Shown here in pieces: positions 3,078-28,551 of a stretch of DNA of 32,000 nt. The stretch's first letter is position 1. The number at the start of each line of letters is the position of its first letter. A program made the position numbers and the translations under genes. Below the pieces are notes generated by a model. It searched no databases and had not been told where the DNA came from. It was given only the letters and a program-made list of their open reading frames with translations. The stretch comes from Acaryochloris marina S15 (GTDB lineage Bacteria > Cyanobacteriota > Cyanobacteriia > Thermosynechococcales > Thermosynechococcaceae), in assembly GCF_018336915.1 (NCBI RefSeq), contig NZ_CP064921.1:112268-144267 (forward strand). The letters are read 5' to 3'.

Positions 3078-4584
3078 CTGACTTTTCCTGCTAAGTCTCC
3101 TGGGTAGCTAACAGCCAGCCTTCAATCAGGTCATTGAGCTTCGCCCACCCTTTCCACAGGACTTGAATTCCAATCGGTGTGTTTCGACGATGCTCCAGAT
3201 ATCCCCCGAGTCGTGCAACTGCTTGAACAGCCCATGCCACCGTTAATGTTTTAGGTACCTTCGGGGTCTTGGCAATGAGAACTTTGATCTGTAAAGGCGT
3301 GAGGACATCTTGTGCAGGTAATTGAGGTTGTGTTCGTTCTAAATAAGTCACACGCAACAGCTCTACAGCAGTGACACACAGGAATCCCAATAAGGTTTTC
3401 ATTCCCTCAGATGCCAACCGATATCGCTCCACCTGAGTGCCCGATTTTAGAACTTTGTGATACTCCTCAACTCGCCAACGGTAGGTGTACCAACGCAAAA
3501 TGGTTTGGGCCATTTCTACTGTTGTCACGACTTCACTAGTGAGCAACATCCATGACACTGGTTCTTCCCCTTCAGGTGGGGCTACTTCTGTTGCATAGAC
3601 AGCGTAAACCTGAAGGGGTTGACTGGCAGCTAGTCGGGCTGGTCTTTGAAGTTCAACAAGACAACATCTCACAGCTAACTTAGCCGTGCGCGCACTCCGG
3701 CCTTTCGTTTTAGGTAAGTCAATCTCATACTCGAACTGAACACTCTGGGCTTCCAGCTTTTCCCACAGGCGATTAGGATCGTGTTCTAGACAACGATTAT
3801 GAGAGGCTCTAACCACGAGTCCCGTATTGTCTAGGGTATTGAGTCGTTCAAAGACTTCAGCAATGTCTCCTTCTCGGTCAAAGACATGAATGATACGAGT
3901 TGAAGGACCCACAGCTTTCTCCACTGCGTGCAGTGCTTCCACCCAACGATAGGATTCTTTTTCCTCAAATAGACGCTCCCGAGCAGTTTTACGCGCTTTG
4001 GTCTGACGTTTCTTCTTTTGTCGGGACGTTTCATTCTTCGGGGGCTTGGGACGATGCTGACGATTCCACACTTTTTGCCATAACAAACCCAAGGGTTGGC
4101 CCTGCTCAGGGTCAACGGCTAAGGCACTATGGAGTAATAATCCATTCCCCCCTCTGCCTTGGGGACCATAGCCTTGGCGCTTCTGCTTGATACCTTCATA
4201 GTCGAGGAAGGTGGTGTCGCCAACACTCAAGGTCATCTCTTGCGACGATACGCTACAAGCGGTCATAGAACAATGAGGAGAAATAATCTTAGCGAAGCTG
4301 GTTTTCACATTTGCGAAAACTCGTAAGACCGTTTGAGGGCTTTCCCAGTCTCAAATACGGTCGATAGGGCTTGACCAAATTTCTCGCTCAGAGAACGACC
4401 GATACTGAATGCACGGTGATTCAATCGTTGATCACCCAACTCACAGGTTCCAAAATTTTGCTCATAACGCTCTGGACTCATTAGATGCTCTCTGGGTATC
4501 ACTGCACTTACTTTAACCAAGGCTGAGACTAAGGGCTACAAATACCACCCACTAAGCACTGGAAGACTTAGCAGGAAAAGTCAG
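3078..4584 (-). mobile_element. IS4-family (IS50/Tn5-like) insertion sequence, 1507 bp
   Basis: Perfect 21-bp terminal inverted repeats CTGACTTTTCCTGCTAAGTCT at 3078-3098 and 4564-4584. They begin CTGACT, like the Tn5 outside end. A 10-bp direct repeat AAACCAGAAC flanks the element at 3068-3077 and 4585-4594. Confidence 0.92.
3091..4520 (-). CDS. IS4/Tn5-like DDE transposase, frameshifted in a homopolymer run
   Basis: ORFs 4305..4520 and 3091..4308. The N-terminus (LGDQRLNHRAFSIGRSL...YEF) parallels Tn5 Tnp. The C-terminus has YTYRWRVEEYHKVLKSG (YREK signature) and WAVQAVARLGGYL. One extra T in the minus-strand T4 run (plus-strand A-run 4316-4319) gives YEFFANVKTSFAKII. The stop codon lies inside the TIR. 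Confidence 0.88.
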
Positions 4585-22960: not shown

Positions 22961-23087
22961 AGTGAAATAGAAAGTTCAAATTAGCTTACTCATACTAATC
23001 TCTACCAACTCACCCGCCGCATAGGTGACGTTCCCTCAAAGTTGCAATCTCAGATCCAATCCCTCTCCCTCGACCAACTTGAAGCCC

Positions 23088-23510
23088 CTACGGTGTACAC
23101 ATAAGTCGGTTTTGAGCTATTTCCCATGCAAAGAACATCGTCTCAAACCGTTTTAGGCCATGGGTTAGCGTTGCTGTGCCTGGAGGTCTTTGAGACTGAT
23201 ACCCCTTCCATCCACCCAGGCGGGCAACAATCCAAGTTGCCCAGGCCAAGGAGTTAATCGGATAAGGATTTTGTAGCTTTGTAGTTTTACCTTGGACTGT
23301 GGGGGCAATTTGTTTCAGGTATTGCTGCTGTTCATCGGTAAAAGTGATAGATGCAGGCCATTGTGGCTCGTCTCGTCCTTCCACCATTTGCAATGTCGCA
23401 ATCGCAACCGATAAGGCTAAGACGGTGAGGCGCTGAATTGCTTCACCCGATTCGAGTTGCGTCGATTCAAGATCTAACCCCGTCTTCTTGAGTTGCGCGA
23501 AAAGCCGCTC
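23088..23510 (-). pseudogene. IS4/Tn5-like transposase, C-terminal fragment
   Basis: The minus strand reads ERLFAQLKKTGLDLESTQLESGEAIQRLTVLALSVAIATLQMVEG...WATWIVARLGGWKGYQSQRPPG...*. Compare Tn5 EEFHKAWKTG...ARLGGF. Confidence 0.88.
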
Positions 23511-23590
23511 AGTCTGCCAGCCATAAAACCCCTATACAAACACACCGTATCGCCTGCCCAATTATCGGAATAAAGGGGTTACTGCAATTA

Positions 23591-23797
23591 GTGAAGCTAG
23601 TTGCCAGAATGAAAGCAAATCACTTATCAGCTCAACAAGAAGGTTGCGAATGTCAGAGCGAAACGAGTCCCCCCGTCAAATTTTCTAAAACAGAGAATCT
23701 GTGGCTAAGCTTGCCTCATCCCAAACGCCAGCGATTAGTCTGTATCCTCAGTCAGATGTTAAAGAGCCAGATGGTGGCCCAAAACAGAGGGAGGTGA
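23591..23797 (+). CDS. Hypothetical small protein upstream of the recombinase (possible accessory or directionality factor)
   Basis: 68-codon ORF with a GTG start; an alternative ATG is at 23609. It ends 3 nt before the recombinase ATG, and its last codons supply the GGGAGG ribosome-binding site. No recognisable family. Confidence 0.3.
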   Translation: MKLVARMKANHLSAQQEGCECQSETSPPVKFSKTENLWLSLPHPKRQRLVCILSQMLKSQMVAQNRGR

Positions 23798-23800
23798 GCA

Positions 23801-25960
23801 ATGAACTCCAAGATTGAGCTAGGAATATGGACATCAGAAAAACTTCAGCCCCATCATCTAGAACGGTTAGCCATCGTGTATGTACGTCAATCAACCTTAC
23901 AGCAAGTGGTGAATCATCAAGAATCGACTCGACTTCAATATGGTTTGGTCCATCGTGCTGAGACTTTGGGCTGGAACCGCAAGAGAGTGCTGACCATTGA
24001 TGATGATTTAGGCAAATCTGGTAGTAGTGCTGAAGGTCGTGTCGGTTTTCAACGCTTGGTTACTGAAGTTGGCCTCAATCATGTTGGCTTAATCTTAGGT
24101 ATAGAGATGTCGCGTCTTGCTCGCTCATCTAAGGACTGGCATCAACTATTAGAAATTTGTGCCTTGTTCGGAACGCTGATTGCAGACCTTGATGGCATCT
24201 ATGATCCCAGTCAGTATAATGACCGTCTCCTGTTGGGGTTAAAAGGAACCATGAGTGAAGCAGAGCTCCACATTCTCAAACAGCGATTGGTTCAAGGCAA
24301 ACACGCAAAAGCTCAACGGGGAGAATTAGGCTTTAGCGTGCCTATTGGTTATGTCCGTCATCCTTCTGGAGTCGTTCAATTTGACCCAGACGAACAGGCT
24401 CAGCAAATTGTAAAACTCATCTTCCGAAAATTTGAAGACCTCGGTACACTCCACGGTGTTCTTCGCTATTTAGTAACCCATCAAATTCAAATTGGAGTCC
24501 GGGTACTATCTGGTGCACATAAAGGTGATCTAGAGTGGCGACGACCCACTCGAGCAACATTACAGTGCTTACTGAAAAACCCTGCTTATGCTGGGGCATA
24601 CGCTTATGGTCGCAAACAAATTGATCCTCGAAAAAAGAAAGCAGGACGTCCCCGTACGGGATCAGTCGTTCAACCCCCTGAGAATTGGTTGGTATTAATT
24701 AAAGACCATCATCCTGCTTACATTGGTTGGGAGCAATACCAGCGGAATGTCTCTCAACTACAATCTAATCGAAACCGTGCGAAGGAAGTTGGGGTAGCAC
24801 GCCCAGGAACAGCGCTGCTATCTGGCCTCCTCAGATGTGGCAAATGTGGTAGCTATATGATGATCCACTATCCACAAAAGGGGCATCATCAGTATGTCTG
24901 CCGCCAAGAGGCTGTCAATTATGGCGGTGTTCTCTGTCAAAGTTTGTCAGGACCTTGTTTAGATATATACGTCTCCAAACAAGTGTTGCAGGCATTAAAA
25001 CCTGCGGCCTTAGAATTAGCACTTGCTGCGACGATGCATTTAGAGCAGGACCATTTAGAGCTTAATCAGCTTTGGCAACACCGCTTGGAGCGAGCTACAT
25101 TTGAAGCGGAACGAGCAGGCCGACATTATCGTTTGGTCGAACCTGAAAATCGATTAGTCGCTCGACAATTAGCTCAAGACTGGGAAGCCAAATTACAAGC
25201 ACATCAAGATCTTCAACAAGAGTATAACCGCTTCTGTTCCCAGCAATCTCAATCACTATCCGCTGATGAGAAACAGGCCATTCGGCAACTGGCTGAAGAT
25301 TTACCTGCACTTTGGAAAGCAGAAACCACTACACAAATTCAACGCAAAGAAATTATTCGGCAAGTGATTCAAAACATCAGCGTGAATATCATTGGCAAAA
25401 GTGAACACGCTCAAGTGGTGATTGAGTGGGTAGGAGGGGACTCCACCCATGATCAAATTACCCGTCCGGTTGCCCATTGGACTCAGCTAAGTTTCTATCC
25501 CCAACTATGTGAAAAACTAGAACAGTGTGCTGAAGAAAACTTGAGTACAGATGAAATTATTGATTGCCTACACCAAGCTGGATTCCATCCCCCCAAACGT
25601 CGCCAAACGTTCAACCGACAAATTGTCCAGACGTTGATGCGGCGCTTAAGCATAGGTTCTCATCCTGTTATGCATAAACGAGCTGCTCTTGGAGAGAATG
25701 AGTGGTGGCTGCCTGATTTAGCAAAACATTTAGAGATGCCAAGGGTCACACTTTACCACTGGCTCAGACGGGGATGGGTCAAAGCACGACAGCAGTCTGA
25801 ACACTCTAGATGTTGGATTGTCTGGGCTGATCAGGCAGAAGTAGACCGATTGAAACGTTATCGACAATCCCCTGTAGGTGAGACTCTAAGGCAACGATGG
25901 AAAGGCGAAGTTCCCGATATAGCTATCTGTCCTGATGGAACCGAAATTCCCAAACTGTAA
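23801..25960 (+). CDS. Large serine recombinase (resolvase domain, recombinase domain, zinc ribbon, coiled coil, C-terminal HTH-like extension)
   Basis: Has LAIVYVRQSTLQQ (catalytic Ser), GIEMSRLARS, LLRCGKCGSYM...YVCRQ...LCQS (Cys-rich ribbon), a long Q/E-rich helix, and a C-terminal LAKHLEMPRVTLYHWLRRGWVKARQ. Confidence 0.9.
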   Translation: MNSKIELGIWTSEKLQPHHLERLAIVYVRQSTLQQVVNHQESTRLQYGLVHRAETLGWNRKRVLTIDDDLGKSGSSAEGRVGFQRLVTEVGLNHVGLILGIEMSRLARSSKDWHQLLEICALFGTLIADLDGIYDPSQYNDRLLLGLKGTMSEAELHILKQRLVQGKHAKAQRGELGFSVPIGYVRHPSGVVQFDPDEQAQQIVKLIFRKFEDLGTLHGVLRYLVTHQIQIGVRVLSGAHKGDLEWRRPTRATLQCLLKNPAYAGAYAYGRKQIDPRKKKAGRPRTGSVVQPPENWLVLIKDHHPAYIGWEQYQRNVSQLQSNRNRAKEVGVARPGTALLSGLLRCGKCGSYMMIHYPQKGHHQYVCRQEAVNYGGVLCQSLSGPCLDIYVSKQVLQALKPAALELALAATMHLEQDHLELNQLWQHRLERATFEAERAGRHYRLVEPENRLVARQLAQDWEAKLQAHQDLQQEYNRFCSQQSQSLSADEKQAIRQLAEDLPALWKAETTTQIQRKEIIRQVIQNISVNIIGKSEHAQVVIEWVGGDSTHDQITRPVAHWTQLSFYPQLCEKLEQCAEENLSTDEIIDCLHQAGFHPPKRRQTFNRQIVQTLMRRLSIGSHPVMHKRAALGENEWWLPDLAKHLEMPRVTLYHWLRRGWVKARQQSEHSRCWIVWADQAEVDRLKRYRQSPVGETLRQRWKGEVPDIAICPDGTEIPKL

Positions 25961-26060
25961 AATTCTTAAGGTAAAGGTCTTATGTCACAAAATTATTCTT
26001 CGTCTATGCGACCTCAACGGAAAAACTCTGATGTCTATAGGGGCATCAAGGCTGGCACAT

Positions 26061-27067
26061 CTCAATTCTCCACCTGAATTTGTACCATTCCAGAATTTGT
26101 AGCGCTTGCTCAAGGGATTCCACCGTGTGAGTGGTCAATAAGCGCCAATGAATCGGGTTCTGACCTTTGGGCGTTGTCTGTTCTACCGCTTCGATGGCAT
26201 ACAGTTGAATACTCGGTGGATAGTCCAATTCCTTCAAATGTTCAGGTCGTTGAATTTTGACTGGAGCACAGCGGATCAGTAGCTTTGCATCTCTAGCCAT
26301 CCGCTGAGTACGGGATTCGTACTCAATCGTAATCGTGGTAAATCCAATCCCCCACCGTGATTTGAGATATCCATAGAGTGATTTGGATTGACCTAGCAGA
26401 CGACGGTCTTGACGAACCCTGACTAGGAGATGATTGAATGCATCGGGAACCGTTGCCCACTCTTCATATAAGTCCGATTCTCGGTCACCGATATGAGTGA
26501 CCAGGCTAGCCCCTCCTGTCTTCAGACAGTGTTGACTTCGCTCAGCAGATGCTAACCATTTGAAGGATTCTTTCTCCTCAATCGGCAGGTTTTGATATCC
26601 TCCTCTATCTTTGACGGTTGGACGATTCGGGTCCCGAGTCCACAGTTGAAGTGCACTCAATCCTAACGGGAAACCAGTCCCTGCATCTAAGGCGAGGGTC
26701 GGGTGAATAAAAAAGCCCACATCGCGATCATTGCCGACAACACCCAACTCTTCTAGCTTTAAGCGTCCTGAATGAGATTGTAAGTTGACCTCACTTGTAT
26801 CACTGACGGCTAAAACGTGTCGTCCTTTGACTTGTTGCTGGCAGTGGTCACAGAGGCTTTTGACCAACTCAGATATGGACACGTTTTCATTCTCTAAGAA
26901 GCGATAGAAGCCCACTTGCTCTGCGCGACCTTGGCTGATTTGACGGATGCTTACGCTCTGATGGTGATGAATGGCATCGAATAATGAAGCCCCCTTTTGA
27001 GCAAACGAAGGTCGCCAAAGGTAGTTCCATTAATCAGTTCTTCGTGCACCAAAATAGGATTTTCCAT
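26061..27067 (-). pseudogene. IS4/Tn5-like transposase, N-terminal fragment, also frameshifted
   Basis: Starts at ATG 27067 (MENPILVHEELINGTTFGDLRLLKRG). One extra G in the minus-strand G5 run (plus-strand C-run 26990-26994) links it to ASLFDAIHHHQSVSIRQISQGRAEQVGFYRFLENENVS... It ends ...EWYKFRWRIE at the insert. Confidence 0.88.
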
Positions 27068-27375
27068 ATCTATGAGGATGCTCTATACGACTTCACTACA
27101 GTCTAATTCAGACTTGTGTGTACACCGTAGCTTGAAGCCCTCGGTGAAGCCTTGCTCGACTTTACGGAATCTACTGACCTAATAAATTGGCTGGAGCAAC
27201 ACCACACCAATTAACAAGTTTTCAGCTCAGTCAGACGCACAGTGGACACGTCGGCATGTTGAGCTAAATACGAAATAATTTGTACCACAGAGAACGAACT
27301 TCAAGATCACACTATTAGATCTGAGGTTTTAATTCCAGATTTTTGACTAAAATCTGTATTACACGAAAAATTACA

Positions 27376-28551
27376 CTAAAAAATGACTGTCTTAGGCTCG
27401 TTTCTAGAATTCTTTCCCCGATTGACTTTGGAGATTCCAGTGTTCGCTGGTGGTCCTGGCCGATCAATCCATAACTCAAGATACTGATCCACCTTTATCA
27501 AAAGCTTCCGAAGGTTCTGATAGGGAATGTCGCCTTCACGCTGAAGGCGACCCACAACAATCCCTGGATGTCGTTGTTGAATTCCGGCAAATGCCTGAAC
27601 CTTCTTCGCGGAGAAGTAAGGTGAAGTTTGCTCTACAAAATGCTCTAATGCGACCGGATCAAGTAGCCAGTCAGCAGCTAACTGATTCGCTTCAGTCTCT
27701 TCCTGATTCACTGCCAGATTATCTAAATTATCTAAATAGCTACCCTTGTGCTGGGCAACAATGTGGCCTAATTCATGCAACAGCGTAAACCAAAAGCTAT
27801 CGATGCGATTGTGGCGTAGTGTTAGGGCAACAACAGGCTTGTTCTCTAGATAGAACGCTGCACCATCAAGATAAGTTTTCTTCAAATGAGGCACAATTGC
27901 AAAATGAACACCAAGACTTAGAAGCTTTTTAGGAACAAGAGCTAGAGCCTCGGCCTCAGAAGTATAAGTCAAGATTTCTGGCAGGGCTGCTTTCAATTTT
28001 TTGGGTTCAAAAGTTGCCACCTCTTGCTGAGTGACAAGATTTTCAACTCGCTTAACCCATGCTATTTGAGCTTGTACTTCTGGATCACGGTCTTCGGACT
28101 GACGACAACTTACGGCGAGTTTCGGGGGTTCATCAATATCCTCAATTCCAAAAAATTGGCAAAGCTGTCTTTCGAGTTCGATCACTGAATCAGTTGCAAC
28201 AATCCACCCCTGCTTAATCATCTCTGTAATAGGTGCGAGACTATAAAGATAGCTTTTACGGGCAATCTCGCTATCAAATGAAGGACCATTTGCATCTTTC
28301 TTCGCTACAAACAAACGATATTTAGCCTCTAAGTTGGTCCAAAGCTCAGCAGATGTTCCTAATGCCTCTGCTAACTCGATTGCAGTTTCTGGAGTGATTT
28401 GCTTATTCCCCTTTACGATTCCGCTAATCGTTTGAGCTGGTCGCCCCATGATTTCGGCTAAATCTTTTTGTGTCCATCCCCTAGCCTCCAATTCACGATG
28501 CAAAATACGCCCAGGCGGTGACACTCTTGCAGGTATCAATGTCTGGCTCAT
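27376..28551 (-). CDS. HigA-type XRE-HTH antitoxin fused to an ImmA/IrrE (COG2856) metallopeptidase domain
   Basis: The N-terminus is LHRELEARGWTQKDLAEIMGRPAQTISGIVKGNKQITPETAIELAEALGTSAELWTNLEAKYRL. The C-terminal domain carries the HELGH zinc motif (FTLLHELGHI). It lies 26 nt downstream of the higB stop. Confidence 0.85.
   Translation of the reverse strand: MSQTLIPARVSPPGRILHRELEARGWTQKDLAEIMGRPAQTISGIVKGNKQITPETAIELAEALGTSAELWTNLEAKYRLFVAKKDANGPSFDSEIARKSYLYSLAPITEMIKQGWIVATDSVIELERQLCQFFGIEDIDEPPKLAVSCRQSEDRDPEVQAQIAWVKRVENLVTQQEVATFEPKKLKAALPEILTYTSEAEALALVPKKLLSLGVHFAIVPHLKKTYLDGAAFYLENKPVVALTLRHNRIDSFWFTLLHELGHIVAQHKGSYLDNLDNLAVNQEETEANQLAADWLLDPVALEHFVEQTSPYFSAKKVQAFAGIQQRHPGIVVGRLQREGDIPYQNLRKLLIKVDQYLELWIDRPGPPANTGISKVNRGKNSRNEPKTVIF

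Follow-up and report, generated by a model that had tools for sequence, protein, structure and literature searches.

Among mobile elements driven by a large serine recombinase (LSR), Tn5397 and Tn4451 offer the closest described comparison. The Tn5397 recombinase TndX can by itself integrate and excise its element, with GA as the core and Fic-domain-coding DNA as the target (PMC4430133); for Tn4451 the published list gives 'Numerous sites (GA)' and no need of a recombination directionality factor (PMC5704250). A comparable but far smaller arrangement is found in Acaryochloris marina S15, within a 32,000-nt stretch of contig NZ_CP064921.1 (positions 112,268 to 144,267, forward strand; hereafter the window), where an insert carrying an LSR gene splits the transposase gene of an insertion sequence (IS) of the IS4 family. 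With a probability of roughly 85%, this insert is a compact autonomous site-specific element whose attachment site is the DNA encoding the R-W-x-I/V-E motif of DDE transposases, to which the third catalytic residue belongs.

As in Tn5397, Tn4451 and Tn4453, the LSR of the window element would excise a circle and reinsert it. The likeness to TndX and TnpX extends to the GA crossover, the TC on the LSR strand of the window being GA on the target strand (PMC4430133, PMC5704250), and the likeness to TndX also to the choice of target, which in that case codes for the conserved Fic motif. Tn5397, Tn4451 and Tn4453 span 6-21 kb, carry cargo and transfer functions and reside in Firmicutes, whereas the window element comprises 2.55 kb and two genes; TnpX has low target specificity, whereas the window element targets transposase genes; and DUF4368, usual in the TndX clade (PMC10083194), was not detected in the window LSR by Pfam scan. 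Furthermore, Tn4451 has a promoter at its circle junction, whereas a reading frame spans the junction of the window element. This promoter, which serves tnpX and is created by the circular form, was reportedly found by Lyras and Rood in 2000.

A second point of comparison is provided by cyanobacterial interruption elements of the XisF type, in which a gene is likewise interrupted and restorable by excision. XisF is the closest curated family of the LSR (NF041201), but the LSR is not a XisF equivalog, because it scores 118.7 bits against an equivalog cut-off of 375. XisF-type elements have been described gene by gene, mostly in heterocyst formers, and are tied to differentiation; the survey of such elements lists two transposase genes among those interrupted, and mentions neither family-wide targeting of the DDE catalytic codon nor cross-phylum spread nor an open reading frame (ORF) across the junction (PMC4874684). 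Integrative and mobilizable elements (IMEs) with serine integrases, such as Tn6104 and the IMEs in traG of Tn5252-like integrative and conjugative elements (ICEs), also use a conserved gene of another mobile element as their integration site (PMC5704250). Their hosts are ICEs, their target is the coupling-protein gene and they carry mobilisation modules, whereas the window element carries recombination genes only. Inteins and homing introns, finally, are selfish insertions in the most conserved, catalytically essential codons of host genes. They are removed at the protein or RNA level and the host gene works, whereas the element acts at the DNA level and inactivates the gene of a parasite.

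The host IS and the two parts of its transposase gene are laid out as follows.
23088..27130, minus strand: host IS (IS4 family, ISSysp3-like), from its terminal inverted repeats (TIRs), its match to uninterrupted copies and a DDE_Tnp_1 domain.
23078..23087, no strand: left target-site duplication of the IS, CTTGAAGCCC, by direct sequence reading.
27131..27140, no strand: right target-site duplication of the IS, CTTGAAGCCC, by direct sequence reading.
26061..27067, minus strand: N-terminal part of the transposase, ending ...EWYKFRWRIE, with a frame break near 26990-26998.
23088..23510, minus strand: C-terminal part of the transposase, resuming (E)RLFAQLKKTG....

An over-long IS with clean TIRs, a 10-bp duplication and a split transposase had been proposed in a sequence-only reading of this DNA, and the proposal stands: the 20-nt TIRs (23088-23107 and 27111-27130) are identical at 19 of 20 positions, CTTGAAGCCC is present at each flank, and both transposase parts read as described. 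The flanking repeats measure 10 bp in the window and 9-11 bp at three other copies of this IS, in line with the ~9-12 bp of the IS4 family. With its insert the IS is 4,043 bp long; deletion of the insert and one CTCA leaves 1,490 bp, in which the transposase frame runs open through ...LEWYKFRWRIERLFAQLKKTG... and bears the Y-x2-R-x3-E-x6-K signature as YKFRWRIERLFAQLK. The joined transposase matches DDE_Tnp_1 over the join (1.6e-7), and its closest named relative is the IS4-like transposase of ISSysp3.

A search of public plasmids with the repaired IS returned uninterrupted copies on plasmids pMB01 and pMB03 of Acaryochloris sp. 'Moss Beach', 99.7-99.8% identical to the repaired window IS across all 1,490 bases. 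The repaired junction predicted for the window IS is GGAGAATTGAGCGGCTT, and the predicted 32-nt empty site, GGTGGAGAATTGAGCGGCTTTTCGCGCAACTC, occurs verbatim in both plasmid copies, in agreement with the earlier claim that excision restores the host gene; these are paralogous IS copies rather than an excision product, so the evidence is indirect. BLAST detected no second copy of the repaired IS or of the element within the window.

The ends of the element comprise two arms and two copies of the crossover dinucleotide.
23511..23538, plus strand: left arm (P' half-site), AGTCTG-CCAGCC-ATAAAA-CCCCTATA, from the inverted repeat and the family position matrix.
26034..26061, plus strand: right arm (P half-site), TATAGGGG-CATCAA-GGCTGG-CACATC, from the inverted repeat and the family position matrix.
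23509..23510, plus strand: attL crossover dinucleotide TC (on the transposase strand, the GA that opens the Glu codon), from arm symmetry, the related locus L001 and the targets.
26062..26063, plus strand: attR crossover dinucleotide TC, on the same basis as attL.

The insert inside the IS measures 2,553 bp, with CTCA at 23508-23511 and 26061-26064. Its subterminal inverted arms (23515-23536 and 26036-26057) read TGCCAGCC-N6-CCCCTATA and TATAGGGG-N6-GGCTGGCA, giving near-palindromic ends of the form GGGG-N6-GGCTGG-N6-TC-N6-CCAGCC-N6-CCCC, and TC forms the exact dyad centre with 6 nt on either side before CCAGCC and GGCTGG. The ends therefore resemble recombination sites, as had been suggested, with inverted arms symmetric around a duplicated core. 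The CTCA proposed as that core does bound the insert as a direct repeat, but the crossover itself is the central TC, because the junctions of L001 share TC alone. In this contig an element 99.8% identical to that of the window (2,551 of 2,557 bases) lies inside a diverged IS copy, whose flanks match those of the window at merely 47 of 53 and 19 of 28 positions. Its junctions read ...CCGT-TC-AGTCTGCC and ...GGCACATC-TC-GATTTTCC, with TC as the sole shared identity, and the Glu codon at the crossover is GAA, against GAG in the window. The predicted joined-end site (circle junction, attP) is GGCTGGCACATC-TC-AGTCTGCCAGCC, and its predicted partner in the IS, attB, is GGTGGAGAATTGAGCGGCTTTTC. This architecture agrees with that of serine integrases: an imperfect dyad attP of ~50 bp, a non-palindromic 2-bp crossover duplicated at attL and attR, and conservative recombination, indirectly seen in the exact attB of the uninterrupted IS copies.

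The window LSR is identical to an NCBI Acaryochloris marina protein, and its exact sequence also occurs in three short-read assemblies, the L001 contig being one. The contigs of the other two end 26 nt outside each CTCA, which is 30 nt from the first element-specific base. Such ends would be expected if the assembly graph branches where uninterrupted and interrupted IS copies coexist, the 30 nt being read as k-1 with an assumed k of 31.

The recombinase gene occupies most of the insert.
23801..25960, plus strand: LSR gene, 719 aa, with resolvase, recombinase and zinc-ribbon domains, a long coiled coil and a C-terminal extension of ~160 aa.

Identification of the 719-aa ORF as an LSR was borne out by hidden Markov model (HMM) search, which detected all three expected domains: Resolvase PF00239 (1.4e-18, residues 24-175), Recombinase PF07508 (7.7e-11) and Zn_ribbon_recom PF13408 (2.5e-8). 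The recombinase domain is followed by the zinc ribbon with its embedded coiled coil, and the N-terminal resolvase domain presents the nucleophilic serine in a Y-x-R-x-S-T context, the catalytic motif YVRQS31T being invariant in all 15 aligned family proteins. The AlphaFold model has low overall confidence (mean predicted local distance difference test, pLDDT, 59.6); it places long helices at residues 384-481, and the LSR distantly matches the solved structure of the SPbeta integrase SprA/YokA (9dxh). Residues ~560-719 form a family-conserved, W-rich extension with the pattern EWWLPDLA..L.MP..TLY.W..RGWV.ARQ...W..WAD..E..RL, modelled as two small modules resembling a helix-turn-helix (HTH) with local pLDDT ~80. 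To our knowledge, an extension of this kind is absent from typical phage integrases; it may add DNA contacts or act in directionality. The window LSR does not fit the IS607 family of serine-transposase IS elements (PMC6188088): it has 719 aa, an N-terminal catalytic domain and C-terminal DNA-binding domains, and its element has inverted arms.

The LSR belongs to a large family. Homologues number in the thousands, and for the best 120 the full-length identity is 60-77%, with the C-terminal extension included. Approximately 74 of these 120 lie on contigs of 2.3-3.5 kb, the signature expected because a multicopy repeat breaks assemblies. A scan of one genome per species yielded at least 592 relatives, and 80 of these loci were fetched for locus analysis. 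The family extends over at least five phyla (cyanobacteria, Actinobacteria, Deinococcus, Chloroflexi and Proteobacteria), with hosts that include Rubrobacter, Chloroflexi, Ktedonobacter, Deinococcus, Streptomyces, Nonomuraea, Chromatiaceae, Competibacter and myxobacteria, and its elements are often multicopy, Leptolyngbya sp. PCC 7375 alone holding at least 17. Element ends were resolved by searching, without gaps, for arms placed symmetrically about a dinucleotide that both ends share. About 30 elements resolved in this way measure 2.38-2.67 kb and lie in unrelated IS elements, with size and two-gene content conserved; most have TC as their attP core, and a few (L020, L021, L032 and L047) have GA. 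Examination of further copies and their flanks, which the sequence-only reading had called for, thus shows homologous ends and the same kind of target in the relatives. Moreover, PCC 7375 contains copies identical at 2,562 of 2,562 bases in three unrelated flanks, and several more in one IS type. Together with the pair formed by the window and L001, these identical copies show site-specific insertion on a recent time scale. At L011, near 2671-2707, an L010-type element is bordered on its left by the terminal arm of an L021-type element, which points either to insertion beside a second element or to recombination of two elements through their ends.

Targets were rebuilt by joining the flanks and taking GA as the codon start, which gave 29 distinct targets. 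GA is the core in all 29, and 25 read R-[W/F/H]-x-[I/V/C]-E with K or R at +7. All ten long rebuilt target proteins that were scanned are DDE transposases, with the domains DDE_Tnp_1, DDE_5 (IS701-like), Tn5 dimerisation domain, DUF4096/IS5-like and IS240/IS6. The same Glu codon is entered in transposases of the IS4, IS5, IS701, Tn5-like and IS6 types by relatives from at least five phyla. The insertion always removes the catalytic Glu and all downstream transposase sequence. A scan independent of the inferred junctions found a 14-nt R-W/F-x-I/V-E pattern just outside the element in 46 of 62 evaluable loci, located 15-222 nt past the LSR stop codon or, in the co-oriented type, ~290-340 nt before the start codon; the chance rate was estimated at ~0.09 matches per locus.

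The exceptions to the R-W-x-I-E pattern are four of the 29 targets (L033, L021, L016 and L059). L033, from the cyanobacterial metagenome-assembled genome (MAG) P01_F01_bin.53, enters the catalytic Glu of an IS6/IS240-type transposase (NNRAE/NSHRPTR, the slash marking the junction), and its flank misfits the TGG half-site consensus. L021, from Leptolyngbya sp. PCC 7375, lies in an IS21/Mu-like transposase (HTH, rve and Mu-transpos_C_2) at ...NRHYY/SVPYW; the sub-lineage to which it belongs, with L024, L027 and L049, has ~69% nucleotide identity and the attP core GA. This sub-lineage has switched target to another conserved transposase motif.

Position matrices in transposase orientation read [A/C]-G-N-T-G-G-N3-[A/G]-T-N-GA for the target and G-G-C-T-G-G-C-A-C-A-T-T-GA for the element arm. 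The attP-arm and attB matrices coincide at G, TGG, AT and GA, on the half that encodes R-W-x-I-E, whereas the other attB half (E-x-x-F...K) shows the conservation that the protein alone predicts, unlike the arm. One attB half-site is therefore effectively P-like, because the arms (GGCTGG-N6-GA) resemble the coding sequence of R-W-x-I-E, and the arms look like mimics of these codons of the target transposases. Serine integrases take their polarity from the central dinucleotide and from nothing else. As expected from this rule, the LSR and transposase genes point the same way in lineages with attP core GA and opposite ways in TC lineages.

The strict pattern [AC]G.TGG...[AG]T.GA occurs twice on the two strands of the 32-kb window, at the occupied site and at 3467-3480.
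3467..3480, minus strand: unoccupied candidate attB half-site CGTTGGCGAGTTGA (RWRVE) in a second IS4-family IS, from the pattern match.

This second IS4/Tn5-like IS (3078-4584) has its own TIRs, a 9-bp duplication (AACCAGAAC) and an apparent frame break in the N-terminal part of its transposase. It had been taken for a relative of the host IS, but is a different IS4-family IS without nucleotide similarity to it. In Leptolyngbya PCC 7375, an IS of the homologous type does carry a family element (L010).

The element had also been described as carrying an integrase and nothing else. This description does not hold, because a conserved small ORF, here termed OrfJ, spans the joined ends.
25982..26063, plus strand: 5' part of OrfJ, 27 codons running outward across the right junction, with a conserved Shine-Dalgarno-like AAGG and ATG.
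23510..23797, plus strand: 3' part of OrfJ, 95 codons and a stop, from its coding signature, homologues and two-helix model.
23669..23674, plus strand: C6 tract in OrfJ, reading SPP; the family conserves a tract of C6-C8 here.

The OrfJ ATG at 25982 stands 21 nt past the LSR stop codon; the frame resumes at 23510 and ends at 23797, the stop codon lying 4 nt ahead of the LSR ATG. Read from joined ends, full-length OrfJ has 122 aa and runs across attP. Because OrfJ fills the gap from LSR to LSR, a circle of 2,553 bp would be almost entirely coding (LSR, OrfJ over attP, LSR again). Among 13 distinct cyanobacterial elements, the distance from the OrfJ ATG to the core is 27 codons in 11 and 29 codons in two, and GGAG or AAGG precedes the ATG in most. 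Other clades have an in-frame ATG ~5, 10 or 19 codons ahead of the crossover, and some have GTG only. Between the crossover and the conserved motif, the window clade has essentially no canonical in-frame start, the exception being L021 with a GTG immediately before the motif. In this clade OrfJ is therefore intact only with the ends joined, because its start lies in the right end and its continuation in the left end.

The ~290 nt from the left end to the LSR start codon are coding and contain two conserved peptide modules, namely module 1, ...P-I-I-G-x-x-G-L-L-x-L-V-x-x-V-A-K-I-K-A...C-Q-S-E-x-S-P-P, and module 2, L-W-x-x-L-P-x-x-x-R-Q-R-L-I-x-x-L-S-Q-M-L-E; the conserved stretches of the 3' part are IIGIKGLLQLV..ARMKA, CQSETSPP and LWLSLPHPKRQRLVCILSQML. 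Mean pairwise differences at codon positions 1/2/3 are 0.42/0.23/0.63 in module 1 and 0.31/0.17/0.51 in module 2, so that both vary most at the third position and least at the second, a coding signature. The module 1 frame is open from the first element base and is the sole frame open over the joined ends. Of 22 elements, 19 have module 2 in the +1 frame relative to it, three (including the window) have it in frame and none has it in the +2 frame, and the C6-C8 tract marks the point at which module 2 moves to the +1 frame in most relatives. Module 2 has its own ATG in lineages without the tract and no start codon in several lineages that have it. This distribution of frames and starts makes a +1 ribosomal frameshift on the proline codons of the tract possible. 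The tract, encoding S-P-P, holds the same position in L004-L047.

An exhaustive HMMER search of a representative library returned 26 OrfJ homologues, all similar short proteins, plus one repetitive false match (P0124); a word-indexed protein search returned no OrfJ homologues. The OrfJ model comprises two confident helices and a flexible linker (pLDDT up to 97, pTM 0.35), which suggests a protein that may fold onto a partner, and OrfJ is the only candidate partner of the LSR for a directionality role. Attachment sites within split genes have precedents: in mycobacteriophage integration-dependent immunity, attP lies inside a phage gene that is split on integration. In SSV-type 'suicidal' archaeal integrases, attP likewise lies inside an element gene, which is split on integration with altered expression, and self-disrupting integrases are exclusively archaeal according to the same review (PMC8371274). 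The SSV and mycobacteriophage systems employ tyrosine recombinases and split an integrase or repressor gene, whereas the window element is bacterial, employs a serine recombinase and splits a small accessory ORF upstream of the LSR.

Joined ends are present in public data. A looser palindromic joined-end pattern matched nine metagenome loci, two of them real and seven chance GC-rich palindromes. The two real cases, L088 and L091 (JGI metagenome contigs), carry joined ends of the form ...GGCTGGAGTATC-TC-AATGCACCAGCC..., the pattern match reading ...GGGGTATTGAGGCTGGAGTATC-TC-AATGCACCAGCCATAATGCCCC.... Specifically, L091 contains an IS flank (E-Q-F-F-K-D-C-K type), attL, a whole element, the joined ends (3136-3181) and 146 nt of a second left end, and L088 contains the last 370 nt of an element, the joined ends (1455-1500) and then a new element. 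Full-length OrfJ (MAKHTPSIPTPYHQPADDYGGIEAGVS/QCTSHNAPI..., the slash marking the junction) is open over the junction in both. The element ends thus join precisely at TC, as predicted. The upstream copy in L088 is itself truncated at LSR residue 628, unrelated DNA with a 310-aa ORF taking the place of the rest.

By analogy with serine integrases, the LSR would synapse the attP of the circle with attB and cut with a 2-bp stagger at TC/GA, and subunit rotation and religation would insert the element, truncating the transposase just ahead of its catalytic Glu. The asymmetric dinucleotide would fix the orientation of insertion, and excision would restore the transposase gene exactly. With lower confidence, OrfJ may be a circle-specific expression or accessory module that boosts or directs integration and is turned off by it, comparable to the junction promoter of Tn4451 and, in its logic, to systems with attP inside a gene (PMC8371274). 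LSR translation might also depend on joined ends, through the overlap of OrfJ with the LSR ribosome-binding site; in that case joining of the ends could set off a burst of integration activity that integration itself shuts down, again a lower-confidence step. Transposase genes would suit such an element as targets, since the host can do without them, they are multicopy and travel between cells, and their catalytic motif cannot drift away. A more inclusive account is offered tentatively and is, in all its parts together, rather doubtful: the family would consist of cross-phylum obligate hyperparasites with mimic arms and a minimal circular operon, in which a gene for a two-helix protein lies over attP and is split by integration, with frameshifting and restraint of IS elements as possible additions.

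The host IS has a history of its own. A third copy, on 'Moss Beach' plasmid pMB02 (L087, 301-2746), is broken by an IS630-family element instead, so that mobile elements of more than one kind nest in the host IS. The frame break in the N-terminal part of the transposase (26990-26998; C5T4 on the plus strand, AAAAGGGGG on the transposase strand) separates MENPILVHEELINGTTFGDLRL and ...KGASLFDAIHHH. It is common to the uninterrupted copies on pMB01 and pMB03 (L085 and L086), which carry additional breaks, and is apparently also present in a 68%-identical relative from a Gloeobacterales MAG (L006); it may be a defect inherited within this IS4 subgroup or else a -1 shift programmed there. The host IS in turn splits a short reading frame ending ...SLSLDQLEALGEALLDFTESTDLINWLEQHH (23030-23087 joined to 27141-27215), and a 391-aa protein encoded next to it (27376-28551, minus strand) has an N-terminal HTH, a HELGH metallopeptidase-like motif and an ImmA/IrrE-like look.

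Several observations weigh against an autonomous, active and transposase-specific element. No circle or excision product was seen for the window copy; the exact first joined-end pattern matched nothing in metagenome contigs, a scan of viral contigs for joined ends gave none, and L088 and L091 show the ends of a relative and could be tandem copies rather than circles. Excision may need a separate directionality factor. Two of the 29 targets (L016 and L059) are not recognisable as transposases, and the matching half-site at 3467-3480 is empty, so that either a 14-nt half-site is insufficient or activity is low. OrfJ matches no Pfam or NCBIfam family, and about half of the non-cyanobacterial relatives have internal OrfJ starts (for example MIGxxGLL), which makes circle-specificity a property of the window clade rather than of the whole family. 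A promoter scan, a weak test, found consensus sites no commoner than in shuffled sequence, and no consensus promoter upstream of the LSR gene. Finally, the host-IS lineage has other frame breaks, and disruption by the element may lack consequence here. On the other side stand an exact empty site in uninterrupted IS copies, targets that are DDE catalytic-Glu codons family-wide rather than random, and an LSR with all its domains. These were the three points on which the sequence-only reading had staked its view of the insert as a parasite of a parasite, and all three came out in its favour, the reading proving valid for the family at large.

Of the other explanations, the one that survives best, although it is still unlikely, is that the window copy is a dead relic of a once-mobile family: it is the single copy in the window, no element copies were found on Acaryochloris plasmids, and the empty candidate site lies 20 kb away, but the 719-aa ORF and both arms are intact, OrfJ is in frame, and a 99.8%-identical copy sits in a diverged IS variant of another sample. 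Loss of the catalytic Glu and the downstream part at every insertion, and the abundance of the family in IS-rich genomes (PCC 7375, Ktedonobacter and Acaryochloris), would also suit a device beneficial to the host, in which knockout of the catalytic residue, perhaps with truncated proteins that still bind IS ends, damps IS activity, and host-level selection keeps the element. We regard this as improbable, since selfish choice of a safe site explains the pattern fully and many IS copies remain uninterrupted beside the element.

The sequence-only reading had entertained an on/off switch for the IS, which would now take the form of a domesticated element under host or IS control, like the XisF fdxN element, keeping the IS off until a developmentally or conditionally triggered excision. 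Exact restoration of the reading frame by excision, XisF as the nearest curated family, and the serine-recombinase interruption elements listed for heterocyst-forming cyanobacteria, two of them inside transposase genes (PMC4874684), fit such a switch. Nothing specific supports it, however, and it is highly improbable: the XisF score is 118.7 against a cut-off of 375, identical copies sit in unrelated targets, and the IS lineage bears other frame breaks even where uninterrupted. Furthermore, the family enters a wide range of unrelated IS families across at least five phyla, with at least 17 copies in one genome, which is the behaviour of a selfish element and not of a regulator of one gene. That the LSR gene is an IS passenger or a prophage or ICE fragment, as its position wholly within an IS with intact ends might suggest, is close to impossible, the passenger version being ruled out by exact empty sites in uninterrupted copies that lack the LSR gene and leave an exact attB, and the insert having its own inverted arms, a duplicated core and a size and two-gene content conserved in ~30 relatives in unrelated IS elements.

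Much of the background to a compact site-specific element in DDE transposase genes is already known, namely LSR-driven elements, the GA core, motif-coding targets (TndX/Fic), IMEs in traG and single cyanobacterial cases of interrupted transposase genes. A full-text literature search found no description of an LSR family on the DDE catalytic-Glu codon, of arms mimicking DDE coding sequence, of retargeting to IS6 or IS21 transposase motifs, or of a two-gene circle with an ORF over attP; an earlier report elsewhere is possible for each.

The family represents an unrecognised layer of mobile DNA, in which a small element has made the catalytic codon of other transposons its niche. It accounts for an artefact that recurs in annotation, 'recombinase family protein' genes between the halves of transposase pseudogenes, as well as for recurrent 2.5-kb assembly fragments. 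It also constitutes a natural experiment in LSR recognition, with one enzyme family reading a G-N-TGG-N3-AT-N-GA coding motif in hundreds of contexts, and is usable for work on integrase specificity and retargeting. The ORF over attP offers a simple example of a possible integration-state genetic switch. If the more inclusive account is true, integration that shuts down a circle-specific program would parallel, in a bacterial serine-recombinase system, the logic of the archaeal 'suicidal' integrases, and elements of this family could measurably restrain IS expansion at the population level.

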